A DNA stretch of 17,033 nt. It comes from Promethearchaeota archaeon (GTDB lineage Archaea; Asgardarchaeota; Lokiarchaeia; Sigyniarchaeales; SOKP01). This document shows positions 2,427-16,891 of this stretch, piece by piece (position 1 is the stretch's first letter; every line of letters starts with the position of its first letter). The DNA lies in contig JAFGOA010000170.1 in assembly GCA_016926735.1 (NCBI GenBank), positions 1 through 17,033 on the forward strand, in the 5' to 3' direction. A program made the position numbers and the translations under genes. The notes beneath the pieces were generated by a model, which was not told where the DNA came from, searched no databases, and saw nothing but the letters and a program-made list of their open reading frames with translations.

Positions 2427-3224
2427 TTATTCCTTTAGGTAGAATATATCTTTATAAATACTGTTATAGATACAAGCTTTTATACATTTACCACATACTT
2501 TAAAATATGATTCAAATCTAATATGATATTTCCTACAATGCTCTCTATAATCATCTAATGATTGTTTATTATTTAAGATAGGACAGATATCAAGGCATGC
2601 CCTACATGCAAAACATTCTGATTCTCTTTTTCTTCCTTGGAGTAGGGGAATATTTATGAGAATTGAGGCAAATCGTACTGCGGGACCATATTTTTCATTA
2701 ATTAGGAGCTTATTTTTTCCACGCCAACCTAAACCAGAAAATTCTGCCACAACTCTATGTGAGATTGTTTTTGCAAAATAATCAGTCACATTTGTAACAT
2801 CTGAAGGAGGCGTCTCTGTTGTTGGAGGGATTGCTATTCCATTAAATATTAATGCAATATCTGAACTAATCTTTCTTAATAGATTATTTATATGATCATA
2901 TTCATTTCCATAGACTTCCCATCGATCTTTATCAATAATACCTTGATTAACATGATTTATATTTTCAATTATTTTTATATCATAACATATCCCAATAGAA
3001 ATTATTGACCCTGTAGTTATAAATGCATGAAATTGATCTTTAAGTATTTTCTTCAGTCGATTTTGTTGTTCAGAAATAAGATGATTAAATACAGAAGAAA
3101 AATTAGCTATACCAAATATACCTTTATAATTGATATCTTTTAAATAATCAAAGAAATATTTTTTGATTTCACTTGTGTTTTTATTTTTAATATTAGAAAT
3201 ATTCATATTTTTCATTTTTTTCAT
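2427..3224 (-). CDS. QueG (epoxyqueuosine reductase)-like / reductive dehalogenase-like cobalamin-Fe-S protein
   Basis: Motif ISHRVVAEFSGLGWRGKNKLLINEKYGPAVRFASIL followed by CFACRACLDICP and C...CGKCIKAC, i.e. two 4Fe-4S ligand sets. The true start may be one of the downstream Mets. Confidence 0.8.
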   Translation of the reverse strand: MKKMKNMNISNIKNKNTSEIKKYFFDYLKDINYKGIFGIANFSSVFNHLISEQQNRLKKILKDQFHAFITTGSIISIGICYDIKIIENINHVNQGIIDKDRWEVYGNEYDHINNLLRKISSDIALIFNGIAIPPTTETPPSDVTNVTDYFAKTISHRVVAEFSGLGWRGKNKLLINEKYGPAVRFASILINIPLLQGRKRESECFACRACLDICPILNNKQSLDDYREHCRKYHIRFESYFKVCGKCIKACIYNSIYKDIFYLKE

Positions 3225-3375: not shown

Positions 3376-5403
3376 CTAGAAGATGTAATCACCAAATGCC
3401 CCTCTGAGAGAATTCATTGCATCAATTAAATTAATTTGAATTTTATCCCATTTCTGCTTATCTTCCAGTCCACCATCATTGAGAGTAAATCTTATAAATT
3501 GAAATGTTCTTTTTTCATCGAAATTCCACTCAAGATCATTAGAAAATTGCCAAGCAATTTCTTCAAATCTTTTTTGAATTTCTTTTTTTTTAGCTACAAG
3601 TGATTTGTATTTATCAATAACAATAGCGTTTTTATCAGTACAATCAAAAAATAATTCCACACATGCCAACTTTCCTTCTATTATATATCGTAAGGTAATA
3701 TTATCAAAAGATGTTGGCTCAGAAATCCATGATGTTGTTTTTATTTTAAGATTGGAATGTTCTGGGATATTAAGACTCAGTTTCTTGTTAAGTTCGATCC
3801 AAAAATTAATTCTTTCAATCTCTATTTTTTTAAGTGTTTTGTCTACCTTTAATTTCCTCTTAGCTAATAAAATTTGAGGAGGTCCAACAATTAAGTTAAA
3901 TTTAGGAATTGGAGGATAATCAGCAACTTTGATTACTTCTATTTCAATCAAATAAAACAGTAAATCTTCTGTTGTTGCCTTATTCAACCAATCAATCGTA
4001 TTAATATATTCAGGTAATGCTTCTTCACAAATCCAAATAATATTTTTTGCATTATATTTAGCTATTTTTGATAAGATAATCCCAAGATGGTAATAATCTG
4101 TTTGTTGGAATTGATTTATTATAAGTGTGATATTTTTTAATTCATCATGAGCCAAAAGATCTAGTTTAGAAATTTCATCATCTTCTTCTATGGGTTGTAG
4201 ATTTAGAGATAAAACTTCATCTAATATTTCTATATTTTCTTTTAACCAAGGTATAAATTCTCTATCTACACTTTCCCATATTTCTTTAATGGGAATTTTT
4301 AGATATTCTAAATCCTCTATTTCGGATTGAGGAATATTAAGTTTTTTATCTAAAATTATCTTTCCTGATGATTTAGTAATTACTTGATATACATCTTCAA
4401 CTTCCATAAATCTTTGAATTAATTGAAAAGCTAACATCTTAAAAGCTTCATTGATATTTTCCCCATTTTTAGCAGAAGTCTCAATATAGGATATACCTAG
4501 CTCATTAGCTAATTGTTCTCCTTCAGTATGAGACACAACTCTTTCATTTTCTAAATCAATTTTATTCCCGACGATAATTAAAAAGATATCTTGAGGAGCT
4601 GATTTTTTAATTTCATTATACCAATTTTTTATATTTTCAAATGATTCCCGATTTGAAACATCAAATACTAAAATACCTGCTCCTGATTCTGCTAAATAAC
4701 TTGGTCTAATTCTTTTAAATTGGGGTTGACCTGCAAGGTCCCAGATTACAAATCTTACAAGAGAATCAAATCCATCAAATTTGCATTCTTTTTTTGATAT
4801 TGAGGTTCCTATAGTAGCTTTATAATTATCTCTAAAAGTTCCCTCAGTAAATCTTTTAACAATACTTGTCTTTCCAACAGCTCCTTCTCCTCCTAGAATG
4901 AGTTTGTAGACATTTTCTTTTGAATGGATCTTTATTTTTTGTAATGTAGAGACTTTTCTCTCAATTAGTTGTAGTTGTTTGTCAACTATTATTTTAGGTA
5001 TAACAGGACTAACAGATTCTCCTTCGAAAATTCTTGCTATTTTTTCAGCTGCAAGATAAGAATAAGCAAAATAAGGATCAATCATTGCAAGTGCATTTAA
5101 TGCGGTCACCAATATATATTCACTTCCAGCTTCACAAAAGATGAATCTATACTTATCTGTATCAAAAGTACCTGCTCCAAATGTACCTAAATCAAAATCA
5201 TGAGTAATTTTCTTGAGAACCAAATCTACTAATGCACCAAAAGCACCGATAAACTTCTTTTCAACATCATCTTTCCCATCTTTTGTAACTGCCTCAACAA
5301 GTAACCCATCCCTATCAACAATTAAGACAGCAATTAGATCATCTCCAACTTCATATTTATACCACTTTAATAAAGCTGCTAATCTTTTTTTATCGACAAA
5401 CAT
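3376..5403 (-). CDS. Fusion: roadblock/LC7-like domain + Rab-like small GTPase + degenerate nuclease-fold domain + DUF4268-like domain
   Basis: N-terminal LIAVLIVDRDGLLVEA...FIGAFGALV (roadblock). GTPase motifs G1 GEGAVGKT, G2 YKATIG, G3 WDLAGQ, G4 NKID, G5 ETSAK. C-terminal half IKEIWESVDREFIPWLKENI...NQFQQTDYYHLG...IIWICEE...IDWLN...PKFNLIVGP, then ERINFWIEL...LEWN...KWDKIQINLIDAM, resembling DUF4268-family proteins. Confidence 0.85.
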   Translation of the reverse strand: MFVDKKRLAALLKWYKYEVGDDLIAVLIVDRDGLLVEAVTKDGKDDVEKKFIGAFGALVDLVLKKITHDFDLGTFGAGTFDTDKYRFIFCEAGSEYILVTALNALAMIDPYFAYSYLAAEKIARIFEGESVSPVIPKIIVDKQLQLIERKVSTLQKIKIHSKENVYKLILGGEGAVGKTSIVKRFTEGTFRDNYKATIGTSISKKECKFDGFDSLVRFVIWDLAGQPQFKRIRPSYLAESGAGILVFDVSNRESFENIKNWYNEIKKSAPQDIFLIIVGNKIDLENERVVSHTEGEQLANELGISYIETSAKNGENINEAFKMLAFQLIQRFMEVEDVYQVITKSSGKIILDKKLNIPQSEIEDLEYLKIPIKEIWESVDREFIPWLKENIEILDEVLSLNLQPIEEDDEISKLDLLAHDELKNITLIINQFQQTDYYHLGIILSKIAKYNAKNIIWICEEALPEYINTIDWLNKATTEDLLFYLIEIEVIKVADYPPIPKFNLIVGPPQILLAKRKLKVDKTLKKIEIERINFWIELNKKLSLNIPEHSNLKIKTTSWISEPTSFDNITLRYIIEGKLACVELFFDCTDKNAIVIDKYKSLVAKKKEIQKRFEEIAWQFSNDLEWNFDEKRTFQFIRFTLNDGGLEDKQKWDKIQINLIDAMNSLRGAFGDYIF

Positions 5404-5637: not shown

Positions 5638-6033
5638 ATGCTAGATCTAATCTTAATTCAAGATGTAAACTCAGGAGTAAATTTAGTAGAATATTATAAA
5701 GAGAATTCACCTTTAAATACAAACCATTCAAGTATTTTCAGTGGATTTCTCTCAGCAATCCAAGCAATGTCTAAAGAATTAGAAATTGGAAATATTGCTT
5801 TGATATCAACAGAAGGGGAAAATGCTCATCATTGTATCATTACCTCAGTTGAACCGATTAGTATAATACTTATTATTGATAAAAATGATTCGATTCAATC
5901 GTGGAAAGACATTGGTCTAAGGATTTGTAATGCTTTTTTTAAATTATATGGAAAAGAGTTTGATCCCCATGAAATTTCAGAATTTAAAGATTTTAGTTTT
6001 ATTATTAAAGAAATTTGCGATGGATATAAATAG
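5638..6033 (+). CDS. Longin-like domain protein
   Basis: 131 aa. LILIQDVNSGVNLVEY, SIFSGFLSAIQAMSKELEIGNI and C-terminal ICNAFFKLYG...ISEFKDFSFIIKEI match the longin/sigma-adaptin-like pattern. Divergent from the GTPase fusion gene. Confidence 0.75.
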   Translation: MLDLILIQDVNSGVNLVEYYKENSPLNTNHSSIFSGFLSAIQAMSKELEIGNIALISTEGENAHHCIITSVEPISIILIIDKNDSIQSWKDIGLRICNAFFKLYGKEFDPHEISEFKDFSFIIKEICDGYK

Positions 6034-8377: not shown

Positions 8378-9166
8378 TCATTTATTTTTAGTTCCACATT
8401 CAGAACAATAATACATATGCTCTCCTAATTTAGTACCACATGCTTTACAAAATCTTTTAATTACTTCAATTTGTGAATAATTTATTTCATGTTGGGTACT
8501 ACTACAATATATACATGGTTTATCTGGATTATTAATTTCATTTTTGCAATATGAACAAATGAATTTATTGTATTTGGTTTTTTCATTTAATACATCTAAA
8601 ATATCTCTATTTTTCGAGTAATTTTTGTATAAAGGCTTTATCCGTAGACTTATATATCCTATTACTACAAAAAATATTAAAAATCCATAAAAAATCCAAA
8701 TAAAATTAAAATACCTTGAATCAAATTTTATAGTATAATCAACTGTTCCAGCTCCATTTGAGGTGAATAAAAAATGATAATTATCATTTTTTTTTAAATT
8801 AATAATTCCAGAATCCTCATAAGAGTTAGTAAATAATCTATAATAAGTTATAGTTAAATTTCTCATCCATTCAGGATAAGCGGGATTAGTTGCGTAATCT
8901 GGATAATATTCGAGTATAAAATAATCATAGTCTGTAATAATTTCTAATGTTATTGGACATGTACTTTTTATCTCCCATTCGATATTTTCTTCTGCATTTG
9001 TACCCAAAAAATACAATTGTTTTTGAGTATTAATTTCAAAAGTACCTTTTTTTTTATAAGAAGGTAAACTTAGATTAGAGTTGTTAAATGAAAAAATTAC
9101 TATATTTAGGAACATTGTGAACATTCCCAATAAAATTACAATTTGAAAATATTGTATTTTTTTCAT
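8378..9166 (-). CDS. Membrane protein with beta-rich (GOLD-like) extracytoplasmic domain and C-terminal double zinc ribbon
   Basis: N-terminal TM/signal segment, second TM (FIWIFYGFLIFFVVIGYISL) and four CxxC motifs (CSYC, CIYC, CKAC, CSEC). GAGGT SD-like motif upstream of the ATG. Confidence 0.8.
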   Translation of the reverse strand: MKKIQYFQIVILLGMFTMFLNIVIFSFNNSNLSLPSYKKKGTFEINTQKQLYFLGTNAEENIEWEIKSTCPITLEIITDYDYFILEYYPDYATNPAYPEWMRNLTITYYRLFTNSYEDSGIINLKKNDNYHFLFTSNGAGTVDYTIKFDSRYFNFIWIFYGFLIFFVVIGYISLRIKPLYKNYSKNRDILDVLNEKTKYNKFICSYCKNEINNPDKPCIYCSSTQHEINYSQIEVIKRFCKACGTKLGEHMYYCSECGTKNK

Positions 9167-9605
9167 TATTTTTACCTCTATAACAATTAATATACGTTAT
9201 AATATAATAATATATATTAGGATATATAAATATTTTGGGGAAAAAAAAATAAAAACCTTTCTTTATTAATACATCGTAAAGTGAAATTAAAGTAATATTC
9301 ATATGACAGCTGTGTCCGTCAGTTACTACGGCAGAACTTAACCAATAGTTAAATCCTTTTAGAAAATAGACATGAATTTCGATTTGCTTCTGATTCTCAT
9401 GGAACGTATGCACTTTATCATGAAGAATACCTTCTCCTAGGGCTTGGTCTCTTATTGATTGATTCTCAATGATATTCGTCTCTTCAGAATGATCAATAAT
9501 TTGATGGATATCCTTCTGAGCAAGATTAAATCCTATAAAAATAATTAAAACTGTTAAAAAAATTGCTCTTAAACGGCTCTTTCTATTGTCTTTTGGAATA
9601 CACAC
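9084..9605 (-). pseudogene. Probable truncated remnant of a secreted/membrane-anchored protein gene
   Basis: GTG start, basic N-terminus plus TM segment and a plausible beta-rich stretch to about 9280. The frame then runs through low-complexity AT-rich DNA (FYFFF, NIYYYIITY) and overlaps the next gene by 83 bp. Confidence 0.5.
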
Positions 9606-9767
9606 AACTTTCCATCTCTCTATGTCGAAATTTTTAGGTAGATCGTTATTAGAAAGACAATAAACCGAATATATTTAAAGAAAAAATCTAACTCGTTGAT
9701 ATTTTTTTTTTATATACTCTTATCTAATGCTTTTTTTAGATTATAAATAATAAATTCATGATAAAAT

Positions 9768-10277
9768 ATGGTAAAGATTACATATGATAATTTTCGAGAT
9801 GTAAATTGTAGATATGCTAAATTTATTCAAAAAAGAAGAGATACATTCCTGCTCCCTATTATAGATTTTAGGGTTTTAAAACGGATTTTGCTTAAAGAGT
9901 ACTCTGAGGATGATTTGGAAAAAATATTTGCTTTTTTCCCTTCTATATTAGATTCTGAAGTTTCTGAGCTCGATAAAGCAATATCCACTAGGTTAAATAT
10001 TGGATTTTATGAGGATTTTCAACTGGTGGAGCACGAAAGGAAAGAATTTGTTTTGGTTAATATTTACTCAGATTTTTTTGAAAATGCTCCATTGATGGAA
10101 AAAATAATGTCTCAGCCAATCCCTTTTAGTAAGTTTGTGACGATTAGCTTTGATACTTTTGTTGAGCTCTCGACAGGGAATTTAATCATGGACCTTGAGT
10201 ATATTTTCAAAGGGGGATGGAAAGAAGAAAATAGGAAATTTAGCGAATTAAGATTAAAACAAGGAATGTTTATATAA
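9768..10277 (+). CDS. Hypothetical protein
   Basis: 169 aa ATG-started ORF with normal composition. No motif recognised. Confidence 0.7.
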   Translation: MVKITYDNFRDVNCRYAKFIQKRRDTFLLPIIDFRVLKRILLKEYSEDDLEKIFAFFPSILDSEVSELDKAISTRLNIGFYEDFQLVEHERKEFVLVNIYSDFFENAPLMEKIMSQPIPFSKFVTISFDTFVELSTGNLIMDLEYIFKGGWKEENRKFSELRLKQGMFI

Positions 10278-10342
10278 AAAATACTATATATTTTGAAGAA
10301 AAATGTTAATAGTTCTTTTTAATAAACAAAGTGTAATAGAAT

Positions 10343-10891
10343 TTATTTATAAATGAATATTTCTCCTTTTGGTACAAGAACCAACCTAATTTCTTTAAAT
10401 TCCTCTTTATATTTATCTTTAAGTATACTAAATGATTTCTCTTCACTGACAAAAAAAAATTTATAATCTGCCTTAGTTTTATTTAATTTTTTGAAATCTT
10501 TAAAAATTGATTCTTTCTGTTGTGCTCCAAAATCTTTTTTTTTGTAGGGATATGTTGCTTTTATCTCAGCTATTAATCTTTTACCATTGTATAATTTTTC
10601 ATCTATATCTAATCCTTTTGCTCCTTGCGGTTTATGAGCTGCATCTATTTCACGGGAAAAGCTAAAATTCTTCATTAAATAGTCTTTTACTAATAAACAT
10701 GCAGAAAAGCTTATATCCATATTAAAATTTTTTATTATATTTTTTAAGAATCTTAAATAATCATAAAAATCTTTTATTTTAACAATATCTTTAGGGATTT
10801 TTTCTTTTATCAGAAAATTTTTGATTTTTTCAATTTTACTAATTATTTTTTGAAATTCAGTTAGCTCTCTTTGAGTTCTGTCCGATGGCAT
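10343..10891 (-). CDS. PD-(D/E)XK restriction-endonuclease-fold protein
   Basis: QGAKGLDID...RLIAEIKAT gives D...ExK, followed by helix FGAQQKESIFKDFKKL and strand KFFFVSE. N-terminal helical region. Confidence 0.7.
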   Translation of the reverse strand: MPSDRTQRELTEFQKIISKIEKIKNFLIKEKIPKDIVKIKDFYDYLRFLKNIIKNFNMDISFSACLLVKDYLMKNFSFSREIDAAHKPQGAKGLDIDEKLYNGKRLIAEIKATYPYKKKDFGAQQKESIFKDFKKLNKTKADYKFFFVSEEKSFSILKDKYKEEFKEIRLVLVPKGEIFIYK

Positions 10892-11011
10892 GTATTATAA
10901 GATATAGTGATGGCTATATATAACTTAGTACAAAATATTATATTTATCTAAAAAATAGATTAAAAAACTCTTGTATTAATATCTCAACATATTTCTTTGT
11001 ACTTTCTTTCA

Positions 11012-13483
11012 TTAATTAATCTTTAAGACTTCTATTCTTTCAGTTAGCAATAAAAAGGTCTCAGAATTTTCTAATTCAAGCGTCTTTAGAATTTCCAAAG
11101 CTTCATTATACATACTTAAAGCTTGTTGTTTTTTACCTAATTTACTATAAACAGTACCAGTGTTATAGAGTGCCATTGCAATTGTCGATAAATTACCTAA
11201 ATTTCTATGAATTTCAAGAGATTCAGTACAATATTTTAAAGCGTCACTATAATATCCACAATCTATATAAATAACTCCTACATCATTAAGATAATCTGCT
11301 TTTAAGGAATCATTTCCTAATGTTTCTTGAATAGCAAAACCTTTTTTAAAGCTATCTTTTGCTTTTCCTACTTGCTTTTCTAATAGAAATATCTCTCCTA
11401 TTCTCATATGAATATTTGCTTCAAAATAGAGATGTCCTATCCATTTTGCAATTTTTAATGCCTTTTTATAATATTTCAACGCTCTTGATGTATTTCTCTG
11501 ATATCGATTCAAGAGTCCAATTTGATAAAGTAGTTTAATTTTACCAGATAGGTCACCTAACGTCATATAAATATTCAGACAATCCTCAAAATAACCTTGA
11601 GCTTTATTATAATCCTTTTTATCCAAATAAATCTCTCCTAATCTATTTAGAGCACCAGCAATTCCTAATATATATCCAATATCCTTTCCTAATGTAAGAG
11701 CGTATTCAAAATAATCGATAGCTCTGTCAAAGTCTGTTTGAAATGCAAATATATTACCTATACGAATATTAGAATTTACAATTCCCTTATTATCACCTAG
11801 ATCTTCATATATTTTCAATGCATCTTTTGCTATTGTAAAGGCTCTATTATATTTATTTAAACCTATATAGAGTACACTGATATTATTCAGACAATCTGCT
11901 ATTCCTGAGGGGTTTCCTAATTCTTCAAATATTTTTAACGCATCTTCGCAATCTTGTAATGCTTCAGAGTATTTTCCTAATTTATATTTGACTATAGCTA
12001 AATTATTAATATGAGTTGCTATTGAGATAAGATCTCCTCTCTCTCTAAAATAAAAAAGCGATTTTGAATAATATTTAATTGCTTTAACATAATGTCCTCG
12101 TTCCTTATGTATTAAGCCAATATTACTATAGACTTTTCCTAAAAATCTTGGATCTTTATCTTGGTTAAAAATCTCTAAAGCTTGATGATAATAATCTAAA
12201 GCCTTGCTAAATGCTCCTAATTCTTTATAATCTTCACCTATTCTTACAAAAACTTCCCCTTTCTCCAATAAATAATTATGGGACTCTACATTTTCAAGAA
12301 TTTGTTTATTGATTTCTATGGATTTTTTATATTCTCCTTGCATATTATATAATAAAGCAATATTATGGAGTGCTATAAAATACCAATCCTCGTCTTTATC
12401 CTCTATTGCTAAATTTTTCATACTTTCTGAACAAAATCTAGCTTGAGAATAATCCCCACTCCCTACATATATTTTAAACGCGATATTATATTTTTCCTTA
12501 ATATCTGGGGATTTAAGGTTTTCCTTCAACCATTTATGTAAATTAACAGAAAAATTAGGTTTAGATTCACTATTTTTAATATTAGAAAGTATATTAATTA
12601 GGTTTAATGTGTCTATATTGATTCGATATATATTTTGAATATCAGTATTTTTCTTAATATCTGCTAAGATTAGATTGATTTTATCTTGTATGTCTTGATT
12701 AGAAGATTCAATTTCATAAATTTCGCTAATTCCATCTGAATCTTGTTGATGATTAATCCAAATAATGCTTTTTAAATCCTTGAGTTGTCTCAATGTTGGT
12801 ACAATATCAAAATCATCACTTCCAGAATATCCCATAATTACTAAAGTTCGATCTTTTGATATGTGTTTAAATAATTCTCGCTTAAAGGATTCTATTTGAA
12901 AGATATTGAGTCCTTCTTTGTTTGAGCCAAATGCTTGAATTGTTGCAATTAAAGAATCTCTCGTATCTTCTCCGGTAATTATATTTTTCACTGAACCATG
13001 AACCTTGTATACTAATTTTTTTCCTTTTTCATACCATTCGTTTGGAGCAGAGTATAATTCAAAGTTTTTTTTTGTAATTACAGGTATAATGTCTTCTTTT
13101 GAGTTGCCCAAATTTAGCAAGGCAATTTCTATTAAATTATCAAAATTAGTAGTAAGCACATAATTACCTTCTTCTATCATTTTAGCCAAAAAGAAGTGAA
13201 TTTTATTTGGTAAATCACATAACCCATAAAAATCGATGATTTTTAAATTTGGATCGATTGAATCTCGAATAATTTCGATTAATTGCTCAAACCTAAGGTC
13301 TTTTATACTCAGAATATTATTAATCTCCGATTCTGGGCATGCATGTCTGATAAGTGCCTCCATCATTTCACGACCTAAAGGTAAGGATGAAGGAGGATCA
13401 GTAGAACACCCTGCTCCAATAAGAAATGATAATCTTGTTTTATTTTTAAAAAGATCTTTGACTGTTAGATTGGATTGTTGCAT
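11012..13483 (-). CDS. SIR2-like (SIR2_2 type) domain + TPR repeat protein
   Basis: FLIGAGCS, LTTNFDNLIE, YKVHGS and IMGYSGSDDFDI sirtuin-fold motifs. About 12 consecutive 40-aa TPR units in the C-terminal 490 aa. Confidence 0.9.
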   Translation of the reverse strand: MQQSNLTVKDLFKNKTRLSFLIGAGCSTDPPSSLPLGREMMEALIRHACPESEINNILSIKDLRFEQLIEIIRDSIDPNLKIIDFYGLCDLPNKIHFFLAKMIEEGNYVLTTNFDNLIEIALLNLGNSKEDIIPVITKKNFELYSAPNEWYEKGKKLVYKVHGSVKNIITGEDTRDSLIATIQAFGSNKEGLNIFQIESFKRELFKHISKDRTLVIMGYSGSDDFDIVPTLRQLKDLKSIIWINHQQDSDGISEIYEIESSNQDIQDKINLILADIKKNTDIQNIYRINIDTLNLINILSNIKNSESKPNFSVNLHKWLKENLKSPDIKEKYNIAFKIYVGSGDYSQARFCSESMKNLAIEDKDEDWYFIALHNIALLYNMQGEYKKSIEINKQILENVESHNYLLEKGEVFVRIGEDYKELGAFSKALDYYHQALEIFNQDKDPRFLGKVYSNIGLIHKERGHYVKAIKYYSKSLFYFRERGDLISIATHINNLAIVKYKLGKYSEALQDCEDALKIFEELGNPSGIADCLNNISVLYIGLNKYNRAFTIAKDALKIYEDLGDNKGIVNSNIRIGNIFAFQTDFDRAIDYFEYALTLGKDIGYILGIAGALNRLGEIYLDKKDYNKAQGYFEDCLNIYMTLGDLSGKIKLLYQIGLLNRYQRNTSRALKYYKKALKIAKWIGHLYFEANIHMRIGEIFLLEKQVGKAKDSFKKGFAIQETLGNDSLKADYLNDVGVIYIDCGYYSDALKYCTESLEIHRNLGNLSTIAMALYNTGTVYSKLGKKQQALSMYNEALEILKTLELENSETFLLLTERIEVLKIN

Positions 13484-13510
13484 TATTGATTTCGCTTTAT
13501 AATTAGGTTA

Positions 13511-13536
13511 CTCTATTTGTGTTAATAGAGATTAAC
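13511..13536. promoter_or_regulatory. Overlapping inverted repeats in the divergent promoter region
   Basis: CTCTATT-N6-AATAGAG (13511-13530) and GTTAAT-N4-ATTAAC (13521-13536) in the 168-bp gap between the divergent SIR2-TPR and PRTase-like genes. Confidence 0.3.
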
Positions 13537-13651
13537 TATCTTATTATAATTTTCCTTTAACTAAAAAAATATCTAGGAACCCATATTAAAAAGGTTTAAA
13601 TGATTGCCTATATATTTCTAAAAATAATATAATTGACATAATTCCTTCCTA

Positions 13652-16204
13652 ATGAAAAATTTTCTAGATTTTAGCAACAAACTCATAAATGAAAATTTAT
13701 TTGAAGATTATAAATCAATACATATCAGATTTATTGCTTATAAAGAAGATAGACAGTATTATATCTCCCATTTTAGATTTCAATTCTCTTCTCAGAGTGA
13801 GGGACAAATTAATTCATATGAATCAATTGATAAGGAATCAATATACATAGAAGAAACCATAAAAGTAAAAGATTTTTTACAATGTTTTCAATATGATAAA
13901 AAAAAAATGTACTTTATACTATTTGATAATAAATACTGGTTTCATGATTATATTAATGAACCAAATTCCTATGAAGAATTTCTTACACAAATAGATTCAA
14001 AATATCAGAAATATAATATTCTTCGTTCTAAGAATTTAATGAGTATTCTATATTGTAATACCCTTTATAATCTTGATGGAAATTATAATCAGTATGAAAT
14101 TAATGGAAATTCTAGAATAACAAATCAAGATATTGAAATTAAATATCCTGTCTTAGAACTTAAATATAATAAGAATATTTTTTTCATAAAAGGAGAACTC
14201 CTAAATGGTCAAGAAATTATTGAAAAAGAAATGGGATTAGGTTCCCTCCTTTATAATATACCAATAATTCTTATTGAATTTCCCATTGAATCATTCAAAT
14301 TTAGTATTAAAACAAGAAGTTGGGATAAGAAAAAAGTTAAGATCAATATTAATTGGGATGTTGATAACAAATATAAAGAGATACTTGAAATATTCTATGC
14401 AGTTCAAGAGGATAAACAAATCATTGAAGAAAAAAACCTTATAATAGAAAAAAATCTTGAAGAATTTAAAAATATAGATATTCTTATATGGTGGAAAGGA
14501 AATCCACAAATTCTTAAAGAGAATACAAGATTATTTTGGATACAATTAAATAATTATTATGATACAACCCAAAATATTGAGAATATAAAAAATCTTAAAG
14601 AAAGAATAAAAGAATTTAAAAAAGTAATTATTGATGAGTCATCCATAGAAAATCGATTAAAATATTCTCTTAATATATCAAATATTTATGGAAAGATAAT
14701 CAATGAATATACTCTTATTTATAGATTGGGTATAATAGACTTTTCAAGAAAAATATGGTTATACAAGCAGTTAAGACTAAGGTACTATGGAATATATATT
14801 AGCCTCTATTTAGATACTATTCCGTTAGAAAGACAAAATTTTCAAAATATTCTTAGATATTGTAGCTTATTATATTTAGATTTTATAGAGAATAAGAATT
14901 TAGTCTATGAAGAGCAGCAAAAACGATTAAAGAAAAGAGATTCATACTTTGGGGCAGGAGAATCACCTATTATTGAAATCAATATTTTGTATTATAATAT
15001 AAATAATGCTGTAAAAATAATTCAGAAAAATATAGAGAATGGATTTATTAGAAATGAAAATCCTTATCTTTTTCTTGAAAATTTTGAAATACTTGGAGAT
15101 TTACACATACATCAAGCAATTTTAAGATTAATTTCTGATAATGGTCTATTTCTCAAAACAGATATTGATTTGGATATAGCTTTAAAATGTTATAAGAAAG
15201 CTCTAAAATATAAGAAAATTGTAGAGATACCAGGAGTTGGAATGCTCAGCATTTATGTTCAAGAATATATGAGAATCTACAATATTTTTATGAGAGAAGG
15301 ATATTTAGAAGGAAAAATTAATTTTATAAACTCAATAATAAATCCAGATAAAGAAACTAAGAAAGCAGTAAACATTCAATATTCTACATCATTAGACTCT
15401 TTAATTGAGAATGTTTCTACTAAAATTAATAAAATAAGTATAACTGAGCTTGACCTCTTACGATTTTTGGATCAATTTACTTCAGAGGAATTGAAGAGAG
15501 CAATATTGATATTATTAGATAAAGCCTATATTAGAACAAATAGAGAGATTATAATTGAATTGAAGGAACAAATCAACATACAAATTGATAATTTAAAAAA
15601 TACATATATTATTCTGTTTCCAGATACAGAATTAAAGAGTAATATATTAATAGCTAATCAATTGCCAAAGTTAACAAACATTCAATTTAATTTTATTCGC
15701 TCGGAACAATTAACTGAAAAATTAAACGAATGTCAACATGGTGTTATATATGATTTTCTTTATTTAGATGATGTTATAGGTATAGGAAACCAATGTGTGG
15801 ATCTTTTTGATAAGTATCTTTCAAATGAATATTCAAAAATACAAGAAATTGTAGATCATAATCCAAATATACGCTTTTGGATTATATCTTGTTTTGGATC
15901 ACAAGAATCAAAATGTTTTATTTCCTCTCGAATCCGATTTATACATCATCATAATATTATCTTTAAAACACCGATAAGAAAAGAAGATAAAGCATTTAGT
16001 AAAAAAAAAGAAATCTCAGTAGATACTATGAATAAATTAAAAATATTCTTAGAGGAAGCGGATAATAAATGGTGGAGAGGACGTGATAATTGTGAATATC
16101 TAGTACTTACAGAATCTAATACACCAAATTGTTCAATAGGGTGTCTATGGAGAAAAGAGAGCAATATAAAACCATTACATCATAGAATACATTACCCCAT
16201 ATAA
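13652..16204 (+). CDS. Large protein with C-terminal PRTase-CE-like (phosphoribosyltransferase-fold conflict effector) domain
   Basis: C-terminal ~255 aa: LLRFLDQF...AILILLDK, PRPP-loop-like FLYLDDVIGIGNQ, GRDNCEYLVL and NTPNCSIGCLW...PLHHR. Central helical/TPR-like segment (DIALKCYKKALKY). N-terminus unassigned. Confidence 0.7.
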   Translation: MKNFLDFSNKLINENLFEDYKSIHIRFIAYKEDRQYYISHFRFQFSSQSEGQINSYESIDKESIYIEETIKVKDFLQCFQYDKKKMYFILFDNKYWFHDYINEPNSYEEFLTQIDSKYQKYNILRSKNLMSILYCNTLYNLDGNYNQYEINGNSRITNQDIEIKYPVLELKYNKNIFFIKGELLNGQEIIEKEMGLGSLLYNIPIILIEFPIESFKFSIKTRSWDKKKVKININWDVDNKYKEILEIFYAVQEDKQIIEEKNLIIEKNLEEFKNIDILIWWKGNPQILKENTRLFWIQLNNYYDTTQNIENIKNLKERIKEFKKVIIDESSIENRLKYSLNISNIYGKIINEYTLIYRLGIIDFSRKIWLYKQLRLRYYGIYISLYLDTIPLERQNFQNILRYCSLLYLDFIENKNLVYEEQQKRLKKRDSYFGAGESPIIEINILYYNINNAVKIIQKNIENGFIRNENPYLFLENFEILGDLHIHQAILRLISDNGLFLKTDIDLDIALKCYKKALKYKKIVEIPGVGMLSIYVQEYMRIYNIFMREGYLEGKINFINSIINPDKETKKAVNIQYSTSLDSLIENVSTKINKISITELDLLRFLDQFTSEELKRAILILLDKAYIRTNREIIIELKEQINIQIDNLKNTYIILFPDTELKSNILIANQLPKLTNIQFNFIRSEQLTEKLNECQHGVIYDFLYLDDVIGIGNQCVDLFDKYLSNEYSKIQEIVDHNPNIRFWIISCFGSQESKCFISSRIRFIHHHNIIFKTPIRKEDKAFSKKKEISVDTMNKLKIFLEEADNKWWRGRDNCEYLVLTESNTPNCSIGCLWRKESNIKPLHHRIHYPI

Positions 16205-16271
16205 AATAATAACAAATCAAATGTAAAAAATTCCTTCTGAACGATTATCCCAGACTATTAAATTCATCTCT

Positions 16272-16388
16272 TTAAAGAAAATATGGTCCAAAATACTCTC
16301 CTGAGAATATAAGTGCTAATCCTCCAATTATAATAAATAAAAGTAAAATTGCTCCTATTGCCTCTAATACTTTATTATCTTTTTCCAT
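16272..16388 (-). CDS. 38-aa single-pass membrane peptide (not in the ORF track)
   Basis: Manual translation MEKDNKVLEAIGAILLLFIIIGGLALIFSGEYFGPYFL*. GGAG upstream of the ATG; co-oriented downstream of 16475-16891. Confidence 0.6.
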   Translation of the reverse strand: MEKDNKVLEAIGAILLLFIIIGGLALIFSGEYFGPYFL

Positions 16389-16474
16389 TTTTTTCTACTC
16401 CAAATTATATTTTTTATAGAATAGTATATGCTGATTTATTTAAAGAAAAAAAATCAAAAATGTACAAAAAGATG

Positions 16475-16891
16475 TTAATTATTATTTTCTTGGTGTTTTT
16501 GATTCTCTAAATACTCTTGCTTCCTCTTTCTCATTTCCCTTATTGCTTTTCTTTTTTGAGATTTAAGATATAAAAAAACTATATTTTCACTTGGTCTTGG
16601 AGTAAAATATTTATCGAGCTGACCCGTATATGCAAGAAAGCGCTCTTTAGAAATTGAGCAGGTATTAAACACGTCCTCTTTAGGAATCTGAATTCCATGT
16701 AAAAGAAGGAAATAATATGACGATAAAGCAATTAGCTGTCTGGGCACTTTAAAAATCTCGTTTTTTATACCCTCTGAATGTTTATGTCTTCTATATATTT
16801 TCTTAATCTGTTTAATAAGGTTACTTGATAGTCCAAGCCCAAACTTAACTCGATTGAATTCCTCAACTTCAAATACTGTCTCTTGGTCCAT
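16475..16891 (-). CDS. Single TFIIB/cyclin-fold repeat protein
   Basis: EFNRVKFGLGLSSNLIKQIKKIYRR...RQLIALSSYYFLLLHGIQIPKEDVFNTCSISKERF parallels a TFB core repeat. No Zn ribbon and no second repeat; basic helical tail. GAGGT upstream. Confidence 0.55.
   Translation of the reverse strand: MDQETVFEVEEFNRVKFGLGLSSNLIKQIKKIYRRHKHSEGIKNEIFKVPRQLIALSSYYFLLLHGIQIPKEDVFNTCSISKERFLAYTGQLDKYFTPRPSENIVFLYLKSQKRKAIREMRKRKQEYLENQKHQENNN

Follow-up and report, generated by a model that had tools for sequence, protein, structure and literature searches.

The gene analysed here occupies positions 3376..5403 of the minus strand in a 17,033-nucleotide stretch of DNA (referred to throughout as the window) from Promethearchaeota archaeon, assembly GCA_016926735.1, contig JAFGOA010000170.1. 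It was confirmed to encode a Lokiarchaeial roadblock domain and a Rab-like GTPase joined to a whole protein of the Madara/PDC-S11 type, which consists of a NucS-like PD-(D/E)xK domain followed by DUF4268. Judged from sequence, the C-terminal module of 310 amino acids (aa) is a whole member of a characterised antiphage family, and what was once a defence gene has apparently been given a new use as a binding part that does not cut. The interpretation favoured, held with somewhat better than even confidence, is that a disarmed nuclease now serves a GTPase switch as its binding or adaptor module, with DNA as the probable target. The original prediction had described one uninterrupted 675-aa frame in which a roadblock-like domain, a Rab-like GTPase with five G motifs (about 4400-4915) and a module with DUF4268 and a NucS/EndoMS-like fold (about 3380-4310) were combined, and all of these assignments were borne out. 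Open reading frame (ORF) analysis of the window, whose G+C content is very low (0.22-0.31), returned a single unbroken frame with an ATG start, 675 codons and a stop codon at 3376-3378.

The C-terminal module comprises a probable NucS-like PD-(D/E)xK fold (residues 369-509, 3877..4299, minus strand), whose active site has decayed and which was assigned from PADLOC PDC-S11 profiles, fold matches and residue tables, and a DUF4268 domain (residues 525-675, 3379..3831, minus strand) with the order a-b-b-b-a-a-b-b-a, whose Atlas neighbours were all DUF4268. Pfam DUF4268 was matched at residues 531-674 with 40.1 bits (cut-off 27). When residues 345-675 were searched alone, stand-alone DUF4268 proteins of 310-316 aa aligned over 87-92% with 27-32% identity, and a HMMER search with the module returned 2750 representative proteins at E≤0.001, 1604 of them at E≤1e-10. 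Among the 150 module matches listed, the great majority were about 300-345 aa long and aligned end to end, and a GTPase was present only in P0013, P0034 and the fragment P0130. Five longer matches (P0141, P0148, P0179, P0246, and P0207) were scanned and carried DUF4268 only; the metagenomic proteins P0141 (520 aa) and P0148 (648 aa) contain two module stretches each and look like tandem duplications. Residues 369-674 matched the PADLOC PDC-S11 profile PDLC04914 (E 4.3e-56) over profile positions 10-308 of 314, and PDLC04911 and PDLC04912 were also matched, making three PDC-S11 profiles in total; the stand-alone proteins P0121 and P0122 matched PDC-S11 at 1.6e-117 and 1.3e-124, respectively. 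Capture of a whole enzyme is indicated because the PDC-S11 profile was matched nearly end to end and stand-alone proteins of about 310 aa aligned in full.

The fold of the module was modelled with AlphaFold2 (AF2) from residues 345-675 and a 26-row alignment (A3), giving a predicted local distance difference test score (pLDDT) of 87.0 and a predicted template modelling score (pTM) of 0.82. Foldseek matched this model to EndoMS 5gke_A with probability 1.00 (root-mean-square deviation [rmsd] 4.1 over 111 columns) and to NucS 2vld_A with probability 0.99; the E-values of the NucS/EndoMS matches were 0.025-0.038, and no match of the module reached E≤0.001. In a VIA search, model residues 30-165 matched NucS 2vld_B (its residues 126-233) with Z 7.1 and rmsd 2.7 over 96 aa, and the part of NucS that the nuclease-like domain resembles is the C-terminal catalytic domain. 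Further nuclease matches were AspBHI, PaqCI, LlaBIII, MspJI, FokI, Can2, and Card1 (Z 5.2-7.1). Model residues 181-331 were nearest to two-layer a/b proteins of the type III secretion chaperone/YbjN-like kind (best 1xkp_B, Z 8.3), and a weaker match of these residues was to the C-terminal, DNA-binding domain of T4 MotA (Z 5.6). Z stayed below 8.5 throughout the module, a range that can reflect only a common arrangement, and the fold assignments therefore lean on the PADLOC homology. At the sequence level no relation to NucS was found, the module profile giving three chance-level matches against PDB sequences (E≥0.38). No EVE/PUA-type structure was among the fold matches listed for the module, and the description of Madara as 'EVE-like' may still hold. 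Contact prediction between residues 1-340 and 345-675 gave a score of 0.00, which is uninformative either way.

The stand-alone relatives provide a reference for the active site. Madara and MdgA have recently been shown to be antiphage nucleases of the modification-dependent kind (type IV). According to the accessible text of the preprint, Madara (the renamed PDC-S11 of E. coli ECOR34) restricts T4(5ghmC) but not T4(C), its N-terminal domain is a NucS-like PD-(D/E)xK nuclease in which D63A abolishes defence, and its C-terminal domain is described by the authors as distantly EVE-like and proposed as a modification sensor (bioRxiv 10.64898/2026.09.05.749240). MdgA and MdgB are likewise nuclease plus DUF4268 proteins in the accessible part of a second preprint, which reports that T4 DNA is a far better substrate than T4-GT7 DNA for degradation by MdgA in vitro and that the E77A mutant is inactive (bioRxiv 10.1101/2025.02.28.640651).

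Residues of the module were compared between 34 GTPase-linked proteins and a stand-alone reference set, for which 92 of 156 candidates were kept (285-345 aa, both halves covered). The Asp at the start of strand 2 was present in 91/92 stand-alone and 16/34 GTPase-linked proteins, the Glu of the ExQ motif in strand 3 in 92/92 and 14/34 (with Asp in a further 4), the Gln of the same motif in 92/92 and 28/34, and the following His in 91/92 and 14/34. The window protein has the Asp (D415, 4159-4161, minus strand) and the Gln (Q431), and the position of the catalytic Glu is occupied by I429 (I429-N430-Q431, 4111-4119, minus strand); throughout its sub-clade (P0001-P0012) this position holds I, M, V, L, or Y. 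At 13 near-invariant polar sites, 12-13 residues were kept by 85 of the 92 stand-alone proteins and all 13 by the sister protein L093. The 34 fused proteins kept 0-8 (the window protein 5), and the three 510-aa forms kept 5-7. In the window protein V379, Y437, K446, and Y466 stand at positions where stand-alone relatives have other, near-invariant residues, and the Tyr at the K446 position was kept in no fused protein. Seven of the 34 fused proteins retain the D...ExQ triad, yet without most of the other sites. Since every fused protein has lost sites, decay must have begun at or soon after the fusion and continued in all lineages. The structural residues W386, L394, G441, W457, N474, and P508 were kept in the fused proteins, as were the core DUF4268 residues F534, W535, I609, W626, and W652. 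Y573, R632, and Q635 are invariant in the fused proteins only, in which E460 (34/34) and K453 (31/34) are also conserved.

These residue tables bear on two alternatives. An active, GTP-gated, modification-dependent nuclease with a rearranged active site might be proposed from the retention of D415 and Q431 and the presence of E460 in every fused protein, given that active sites have migrated within the superfamily and that McrBC performs GTP-dependent type IV restriction. This was considered improbable: the Glu that is universal in the stand-alone set, and whose presumed equivalent is essential in MdgA according to the accessible preprint text, is Ile in the window protein, 8 of the 13 near-invariant sites are changed in it, and no fused protein keeps more than 8. 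E460 need not be a new catalytic residue, because Glu is already the most frequent residue at that column among stand-alone proteins (35%), and L093 has it as well. The other alternative is that nucleic-acid binding was itself lost, leaving a protein-protein platform such as a regulator, an effector mimic or an oligomerisation domain. The loss of most conserved polar residues (the equivalents of E379, E408, H437, Y446, and H466), the resemblance of the DUF4268 fold to peptide-binding proteins of the type III secretion chaperone/YbjN-like kind, and the existence of truncated forms that keep one half only would all fit such a platform; the fold matches on which the resemblance depends are, however, middling (Z 5-8.3) and perhaps a common arrangement, and the core residues of DUF4268 are kept, so that this explanation was rated as rather doubtful. 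With respect to the role of the module, the original prediction had suggested that a module from DNA-processing or restriction-associated proteins could couple the sensing of nucleic acids or ligands to GTPase signalling, without recognising the antiphage family or the decay of the active site; sensing or binding is favoured here over any DNA-processing role, since the active-site region is decayed in every fused protein.

That the fusion is a genuine gene was established from several sources. The protein database contained 32 further full-length proteins of 660-693 aa on separate contigs (97-100% query cover, 43-83% identity), and among species-representative genomes 15 loci in other assemblies (L001-L009, L011, L013, L016, L018, L022, and L059) encode the architecture up to residue 663 or beyond. 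A 634-base salt-marsh metagenome contig from a different study spans the junction (4194-4827) with 21 substitutions and no indel. An assembly chimera near 4310-4400, against which the original prediction had cautioned, is excluded by the orthologs, the loci elsewhere and the independent contig that bridges the junction. One metatranscriptome contained 0 contigs matching the gene, which has no bearing on expression.

Selection was estimated by the Nei-Gojobori method from the window gene and its 83% identical ortholog L002. The ratios of nonsynonymous to synonymous substitution (dN/dS) were 0.04 for the roadblock domain, 0.05 for the GTPase, 0.18 for the nuclease-like domain, and 0.14 for DUF4268, at dS values of 0.77-1.30 that are near saturation; for other pairs the module gave 0.07-0.21. 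By these estimates the module evolves faster than the switch yet is clearly constrained, and it is not a decaying appendage. A pseudogene in decay or a chimera, as an explanation for the whole gene, was accordingly given next to no weight: the architecture recurs in other assemblies (15 loci) and in 17 of the 400 genomes of the phylum, stops and frameshifts are absent, the module is under constraint in the comparison with L002 (dN/dS 0.14-0.18), and a contig from an independent study crosses the junction.

A PDC-S11 match at E≤1e-5 was found in 34 of 400 genomes of the phylum. Fused open frames (643-710 aa) occur in 17 of the 400, the window's genome (G000) included, and all of these belong to the window's family (f1), in which 22 of 134 genomes, G000 excluded, have a PDC-S11 match. 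The genera of f1 are very uneven, with 3/3, 5/6, and 4/7 genomes at one extreme and 2/54 and 1/42 at the other. In two of the genomes with a fused frame a single TAA falls within the match, to judge by length at its extreme end. Other families also contain stand-alone frames (314-342 aa), as does f1 in one case, and G153 has the fused and the stand-alone form. The window's genome contains the module and DUF4268 only once, in this gene. In another f1 genome, a match to the DUF4268 half (profile positions 150-311) lies inside an 854-aa frame (G227:C4:45839-46318) and may be a different fusion.

A tree of the module was calculated from 90 rows (34 GTPase-linked modules, 6 Asgard stand-alone proteins and the first 50 of the 92 stand-alone representatives that passed the filter; the fragments L094 and L099 were not included). 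Branch support in all trees was given by the Shimodaira-Hasegawa-like approximate likelihood ratio test (SH-aLRT) only, the trees being quick searches. The 34 GTPase-linked modules formed one clan (SH-aLRT 97), the sister of which (SH-aLRT 99) consisted of L093, a stand-alone gene of f1, together with P0131; the DUF4268 domains of the 505-aa forms also fell in the fused clan (36 rows, SH-aLRT 98). Because there is one fused clan with an f1 stand-alone sister, a single fusion from a stand-alone gene resident in Asgard archaea is indicated, and on the evidence of this tree the fusion is a unique event that began with a gene resident in the window's archaeal family. A second tree was built from the roadblock-GTPase part (99 rows, rooted on its own paralogs), in which the fused proteins grouped with forms of 397 aa (87) and the 397-aa forms nested inside the fused proteins (98). 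Forcing the fused forms into one clade cost 41.8 log-likelihood units, with p 0.031 in the approximately unbiased test (p-AU; 0.046 with the 505-aa forms included), a borderline monophyly test for a group that was named after the tree had been seen. As they are nested among fused proteins, the 397-aa proteins may have lost the module secondarily. These 397-aa relatives (e.g. P0048 and P0060) have a conserved tail of about 60 aa (residues about 338-397) without a Pfam match; the tail was tried as a remnant of the module and rejected, no relation being detectable (hhalign probability 0.1).

Two kinds of half-form were recovered. Roadblock-Rab proteins with DUF4268 but without the nuclease-like half are 505-514 aa long (P0045, P0051, and P0053), and those with the nuclease-like domain but without DUF4268 are 507-530 aa long (P0034, P0036, P0038, L042, and L048). 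No DUF4268 coding sequence was found downstream of L042 or L048 that would point to a split gene, and the nuclease-like half is genuinely the last part of the 507-513-aa forms. Later lineages thus dropped one or the other half of the module. Taken together, one fusion, active-site decay in all descendants and continued selection would make this family a clean example of the domestication of a defence gene.

The N-terminal domain (residues 1-127, 5023..5403, minus strand) was identified largely from structure. The window sequence itself reached E 0.03 and 14.5 bits against Pfam Robl_LC7, under the curated cut-off of 23. In an alignment of 27 rows (A2: fused proteins, shorter relatives and six distant paralogs from the window's genome), 18 of the 27 N-terminal domains matched Robl_LC7 at E≤10 (best 1.2e-5), LAMTOR-type families appearing as well, and the A2 profile matched five PDB sequences at E≤10, all of them roadblock/MglB and weak (E 0.24-1.9). 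The AF2 model (pLDDT 81.4, pTM 0.77) has the order a-b-b-a-b-b-b-a by DSSP and gave 138 Foldseek matches at E≤0.001, led by Thermus MglB 1j3w_B (E 1.1e-7; TM 0.66/0.73, rmsd 2.9 over 131 columns); Roadblock3 of Lokiarchaeon MK-D1 (9jue_E, E 4.1e-7), a Thorarchaeota roadblock (7f8m_D) and Ragulator subunits were also matched. By its predicted fold the domain is a roadblock in which neither terminal helix is missing, and the original assignment stands on this MglB fold and on the Robl_LC7 matches of the relatives. Roadblock dimers, such as those of MglB and Ragulator, regulate Ras-like GTPases.

The Rab-like small GTPase was delimited at residues 164-337 (4393..4914, minus strand), close to the extent originally proposed. 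Pfam Ras matched residues 167-327 (E 1.6e-50) and NCBIfam small_GTP matched at E 4.3e-27. In a PDB sequence search the best solved relative was 'Thorarchaeota Rab' 7ezb_A (E 2.4e-40, residues 164-337), and the best 60 of 954 matches were all Rab or Ypt/Sec4 (yeast Rab), which is a ranking by similarity and not a GTPase family tree. The motifs, all on the minus strand, are G1 (GEGAVGKT, residues 172-179, 4867-4890), switch I with T197 (4804-4824), G3 (DLAGQ, residues 222-226, 4726-4740, with the catalytic Gln of the Ras/Rab type), G4 (NKID, residues 280-283, 4555-4566), and G5 (SAK, residues 310-312, 4468-4476). G1-G5 and the switch-I Thr were invariant in the 33 aligned full-length fused proteins, the window protein included (alignment A1). 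Between the GTPase and the module lies a variable linker (residues 338-368, 4300..4392, minus strand) of low conservation and pLDDT about 60, with length changes at about columns 360-400 of A1. The window's genome holds seven further roadblock-GTPase genes (contigs C69, C141, C167 with two, C100, C95, and C211). Its small GTPases number in the dozens, and a tblastn search with the GTPase domain gave a total of about 45 matches there. The C69 paralog is a 336-aa roadblock-Rab protein, 58% identical over residues 1-338, the other six being more distant; its family is highly conserved across many assemblies, at 55-63% identity to the window protein.

In the mechanism proposed, an ancestral roadblock-Rab switch protein would have captured a complete stand-alone enzyme of the Madara/PDC-S11 type at its C-terminus, once. 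The module would no longer cut and would have been retained as a binding or adaptor part; its target would most likely be DNA, because both of its domains derive from a DNA-recognising enzyme. By analogy with MglB and Ragulator roadblocks, the roadblock domain would dimerise and regulate the GTPase in cis, and the nucleotide state of the GTPase would be coupled to the ligand of the module, either with the switch being placed on DNA or with binding altering GTP turnover. The domesticated pseudo-nuclease would in that case be the targeting or effector domain of a Rab-like switch that has no lipid tail. Asgard Rabs without a prenylated tail have been described (Tran et al. 2024, PMC10933270, accessible text). 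The window protein has no C-terminal Cys for prenylation, ending in ...GDYIF with Cys only at residues 90, 207, 459, 581, and 588. Given the lack of a prenylated tail and of a terminal Cys, a captured binding domain would be a plausible way to place the switch. A more specific version, in which the Rab-like switch is tethered to DNA or senses modified DNA through the disarmed restriction enzyme, while the GTP state is set by the bound ligand and passed on by the roadblock dimer, is put forward as a speculative proposal with a small chance of being correct. If true, innate immune sensing by GTPases, or their control function at chromatin, would have a forerunner in prokaryotes, and Asgard archaea would target some of their Rab-like switches that lack a lipid tail through captured domains.

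A further alternative is that the defence function was retained, the disarmed module sensing modified viral DNA and the GTPase passing the signal on to separate effectors, so that the protein would be a GTPase-based antiviral sensor and not a housekeeping adaptor. An antiviral role is reported for the parent family in the accessible text of the preprints cited above, the distribution in f1 is patchy (22 of 134 genomes, genera from 3/3 to 1/42), and the rate of evolution of the module is 3-4 times that of the GTPase, all of which would suit such a role. The genomic setting was compared among orthologous loci. The gene is flanked in the window by a gene for a Fer4-type protein (2427-3224) and by a divergent gene of 131 aa on the plus strand (5638-6033) without a Pfam or PADLOC match, which is followed by an ABC-2 transporter pair. 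In 14 loci compared, the divergent upstream gene (131-143 aa) was kept only in the window, L002, L003, L004, and L006. A Tpt1/KptA RNA 2'-phosphotransferase gene is directly downstream in L003 (10094-10654), L004 (7298-7858), L006 (10071-10634), and L007 (7792-8361), and not in the window or L002. The orthologous loci also have as neighbours PAS histidine kinases and succinyl-CoA-ligase-like, IF-2B-family and thioesterase genes, and those of more distant clades have GNAT, metallo-beta-lactamase-fold, ketohexokinase, and hydantoinase genes. No neighbour family was common to all clades in the compared loci, and none of the conserved neighbours there is a defence gene; the fusion gene sits in a chromosomal setting other than a defence island.

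Nothing corresponding to positions 8378-16891 of the window is present in the orthologous loci. This part contains an 823-aa SIR2_2 plus TPR protein (11012-13483, minus strand) with weak PADLOC matches to PDC-S65 and Aga SIR2 and, divergently arranged to it, an 850-aa protein (13652-16204, plus strand) without a Pfam match and with a weak PADLOC match to PRTase_III-A at residues 579-845 (E 9.9e-8). This stretch may be a variable or defence island, and it is not linked to the fusion gene in relatives. The SIR2-TPR protein and the protein with the PRTase-like C-terminus, 5.6-8 kb from the fusion gene, can be counted in favour of a retained role in defence. The neighbours in 13 compared loci are, however, metabolic or housekeeping genes with no defence gene conserved among them, the trees of the N- and C-terminal parts share sub-clades, as expected from vertical descent and not from island-hopping, and no effector was identified. 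A retained role in defence was thus regarded as unlikely, though not negligibly so.

Several observations weigh against the favoured reading of a disarmed nuclease reused for binding. The presence of the D...ExQ triad in 7 of the 34 fused proteins means that some lineages might retain residual activity, and E460 is invariant among these proteins; enzymes of the PD-(D/E)xK superfamily with relocated catalytic acids are known (the Cfr10I/NgoMIV class). The equivalence of D63 of Madara and E77 of MdgA to D415 and I429 of the window protein was derived from the numbering of the homologous stand-alone protein P0122 (D59, E74) and not from an alignment. The estimate of constraint carries the near-saturated dS given above, and the trees behind the single fusion are the quick searches already described. 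Both half-forms exist, so the two halves of the module need not act together, and in the window's genome the fusion gene is about 5.6 kb from a variable region that includes a SIR2-TPR gene. Binding of DNA or of another ligand by the module is something we infer from sequence, and the sensing role of DUF4268 is a proposal in the Madara and MdgA preprints, as far as their accessible text goes.

The original prediction had also described the architecture as unrecognised. No paper describing the combination of roadblock, GTPase, nuclease, and DUF4268 was found, although the supplements of Asgard GTPase surveys were outside the search and could list it, and the combination is rare and confined to one Asgard family; to that extent the description stands. 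The proteins as such are not new to the databases, several fused orthologs from Lokiarchaeota/Promethearchaeota being already deposited in public records as 'DUF4268 domain-containing protein'. Among the features that connect Asgard archaea with the cell organisation of eukaryotes are small GTPases joined to roadblock or longin domains, and almost nothing is known of their targets. The window protein gives an Asgard GTPase a recognisable cargo-side domain of known ancestry, and thereby a concrete hypothesis that can be tested.

Among the closest known systems are Madara (PDC-S11) and MdgA/MdgB, with which the module shares its domain order, NucS-like PD-(D/E)xK and then DUF4268. According to the accessible preprint text those proteins are stand-alone, about 310 aa long, and dependent on D63 and E77, whereas the module of the window protein is fused and decayed, with I429 at the Glu position. 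The PDC-S11, Madara and MdgA systems are single genes often found in defence islands; the window gene is a fusion, with non-defence neighbours in the compared loci. The DUF4268 domain is also shared with the GmrSD-family type IV enzymes, in which it is an accessory domain (PMC4619093, accessible text); the DUF262 and DUF1524 domains are absent from the window protein. As for NucS/EndoMS, the predicted fold of residues about 378-491 resembles the NucS catalytic domain, but the N-terminal domain of NucS, the catalytic Glu and any sequence-level relation are missing.

Among Asgard roadblock-GTPase fusions, the relatives of 336-347 aa and 397 aa have the same order of roadblock and then GTPase and are 55-63% identical over residues 1-338; unlike the window protein, they end after the GTPase or carry the tail of about 60 aa. 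In MK-D1, 26 of 74 small GTPases are combined with roadblock/longin domains, and the accessible text of that survey mentions no nuclease or DUF4268 partner and places roadblock fusions in the Rag/Arf-like class, whereas the window GTPase scores best against Rab structures (PMC10933270). In relation to MglA-MglB and Rag-Ragulator, the N-terminal domain has its roadblock fold in common with MglB and LAMTOR (Foldseek E 1e-7 to 2e-5), and the difference is that roadblock and GTPase here are in one chain, with a Gln of the Ras/Rab type (DLAGQ). In its logic the window protein is similar to McrBC, a GTP-dependent type IV restriction system in which a GTPase, a PD-(D/E)xK nuclease and a reader of modified DNA are combined. 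Unlike the window protein, McrBC consists of separate subunits, of which McrB is a non-homologous AAA+ GTPase and McrC an active nuclease.

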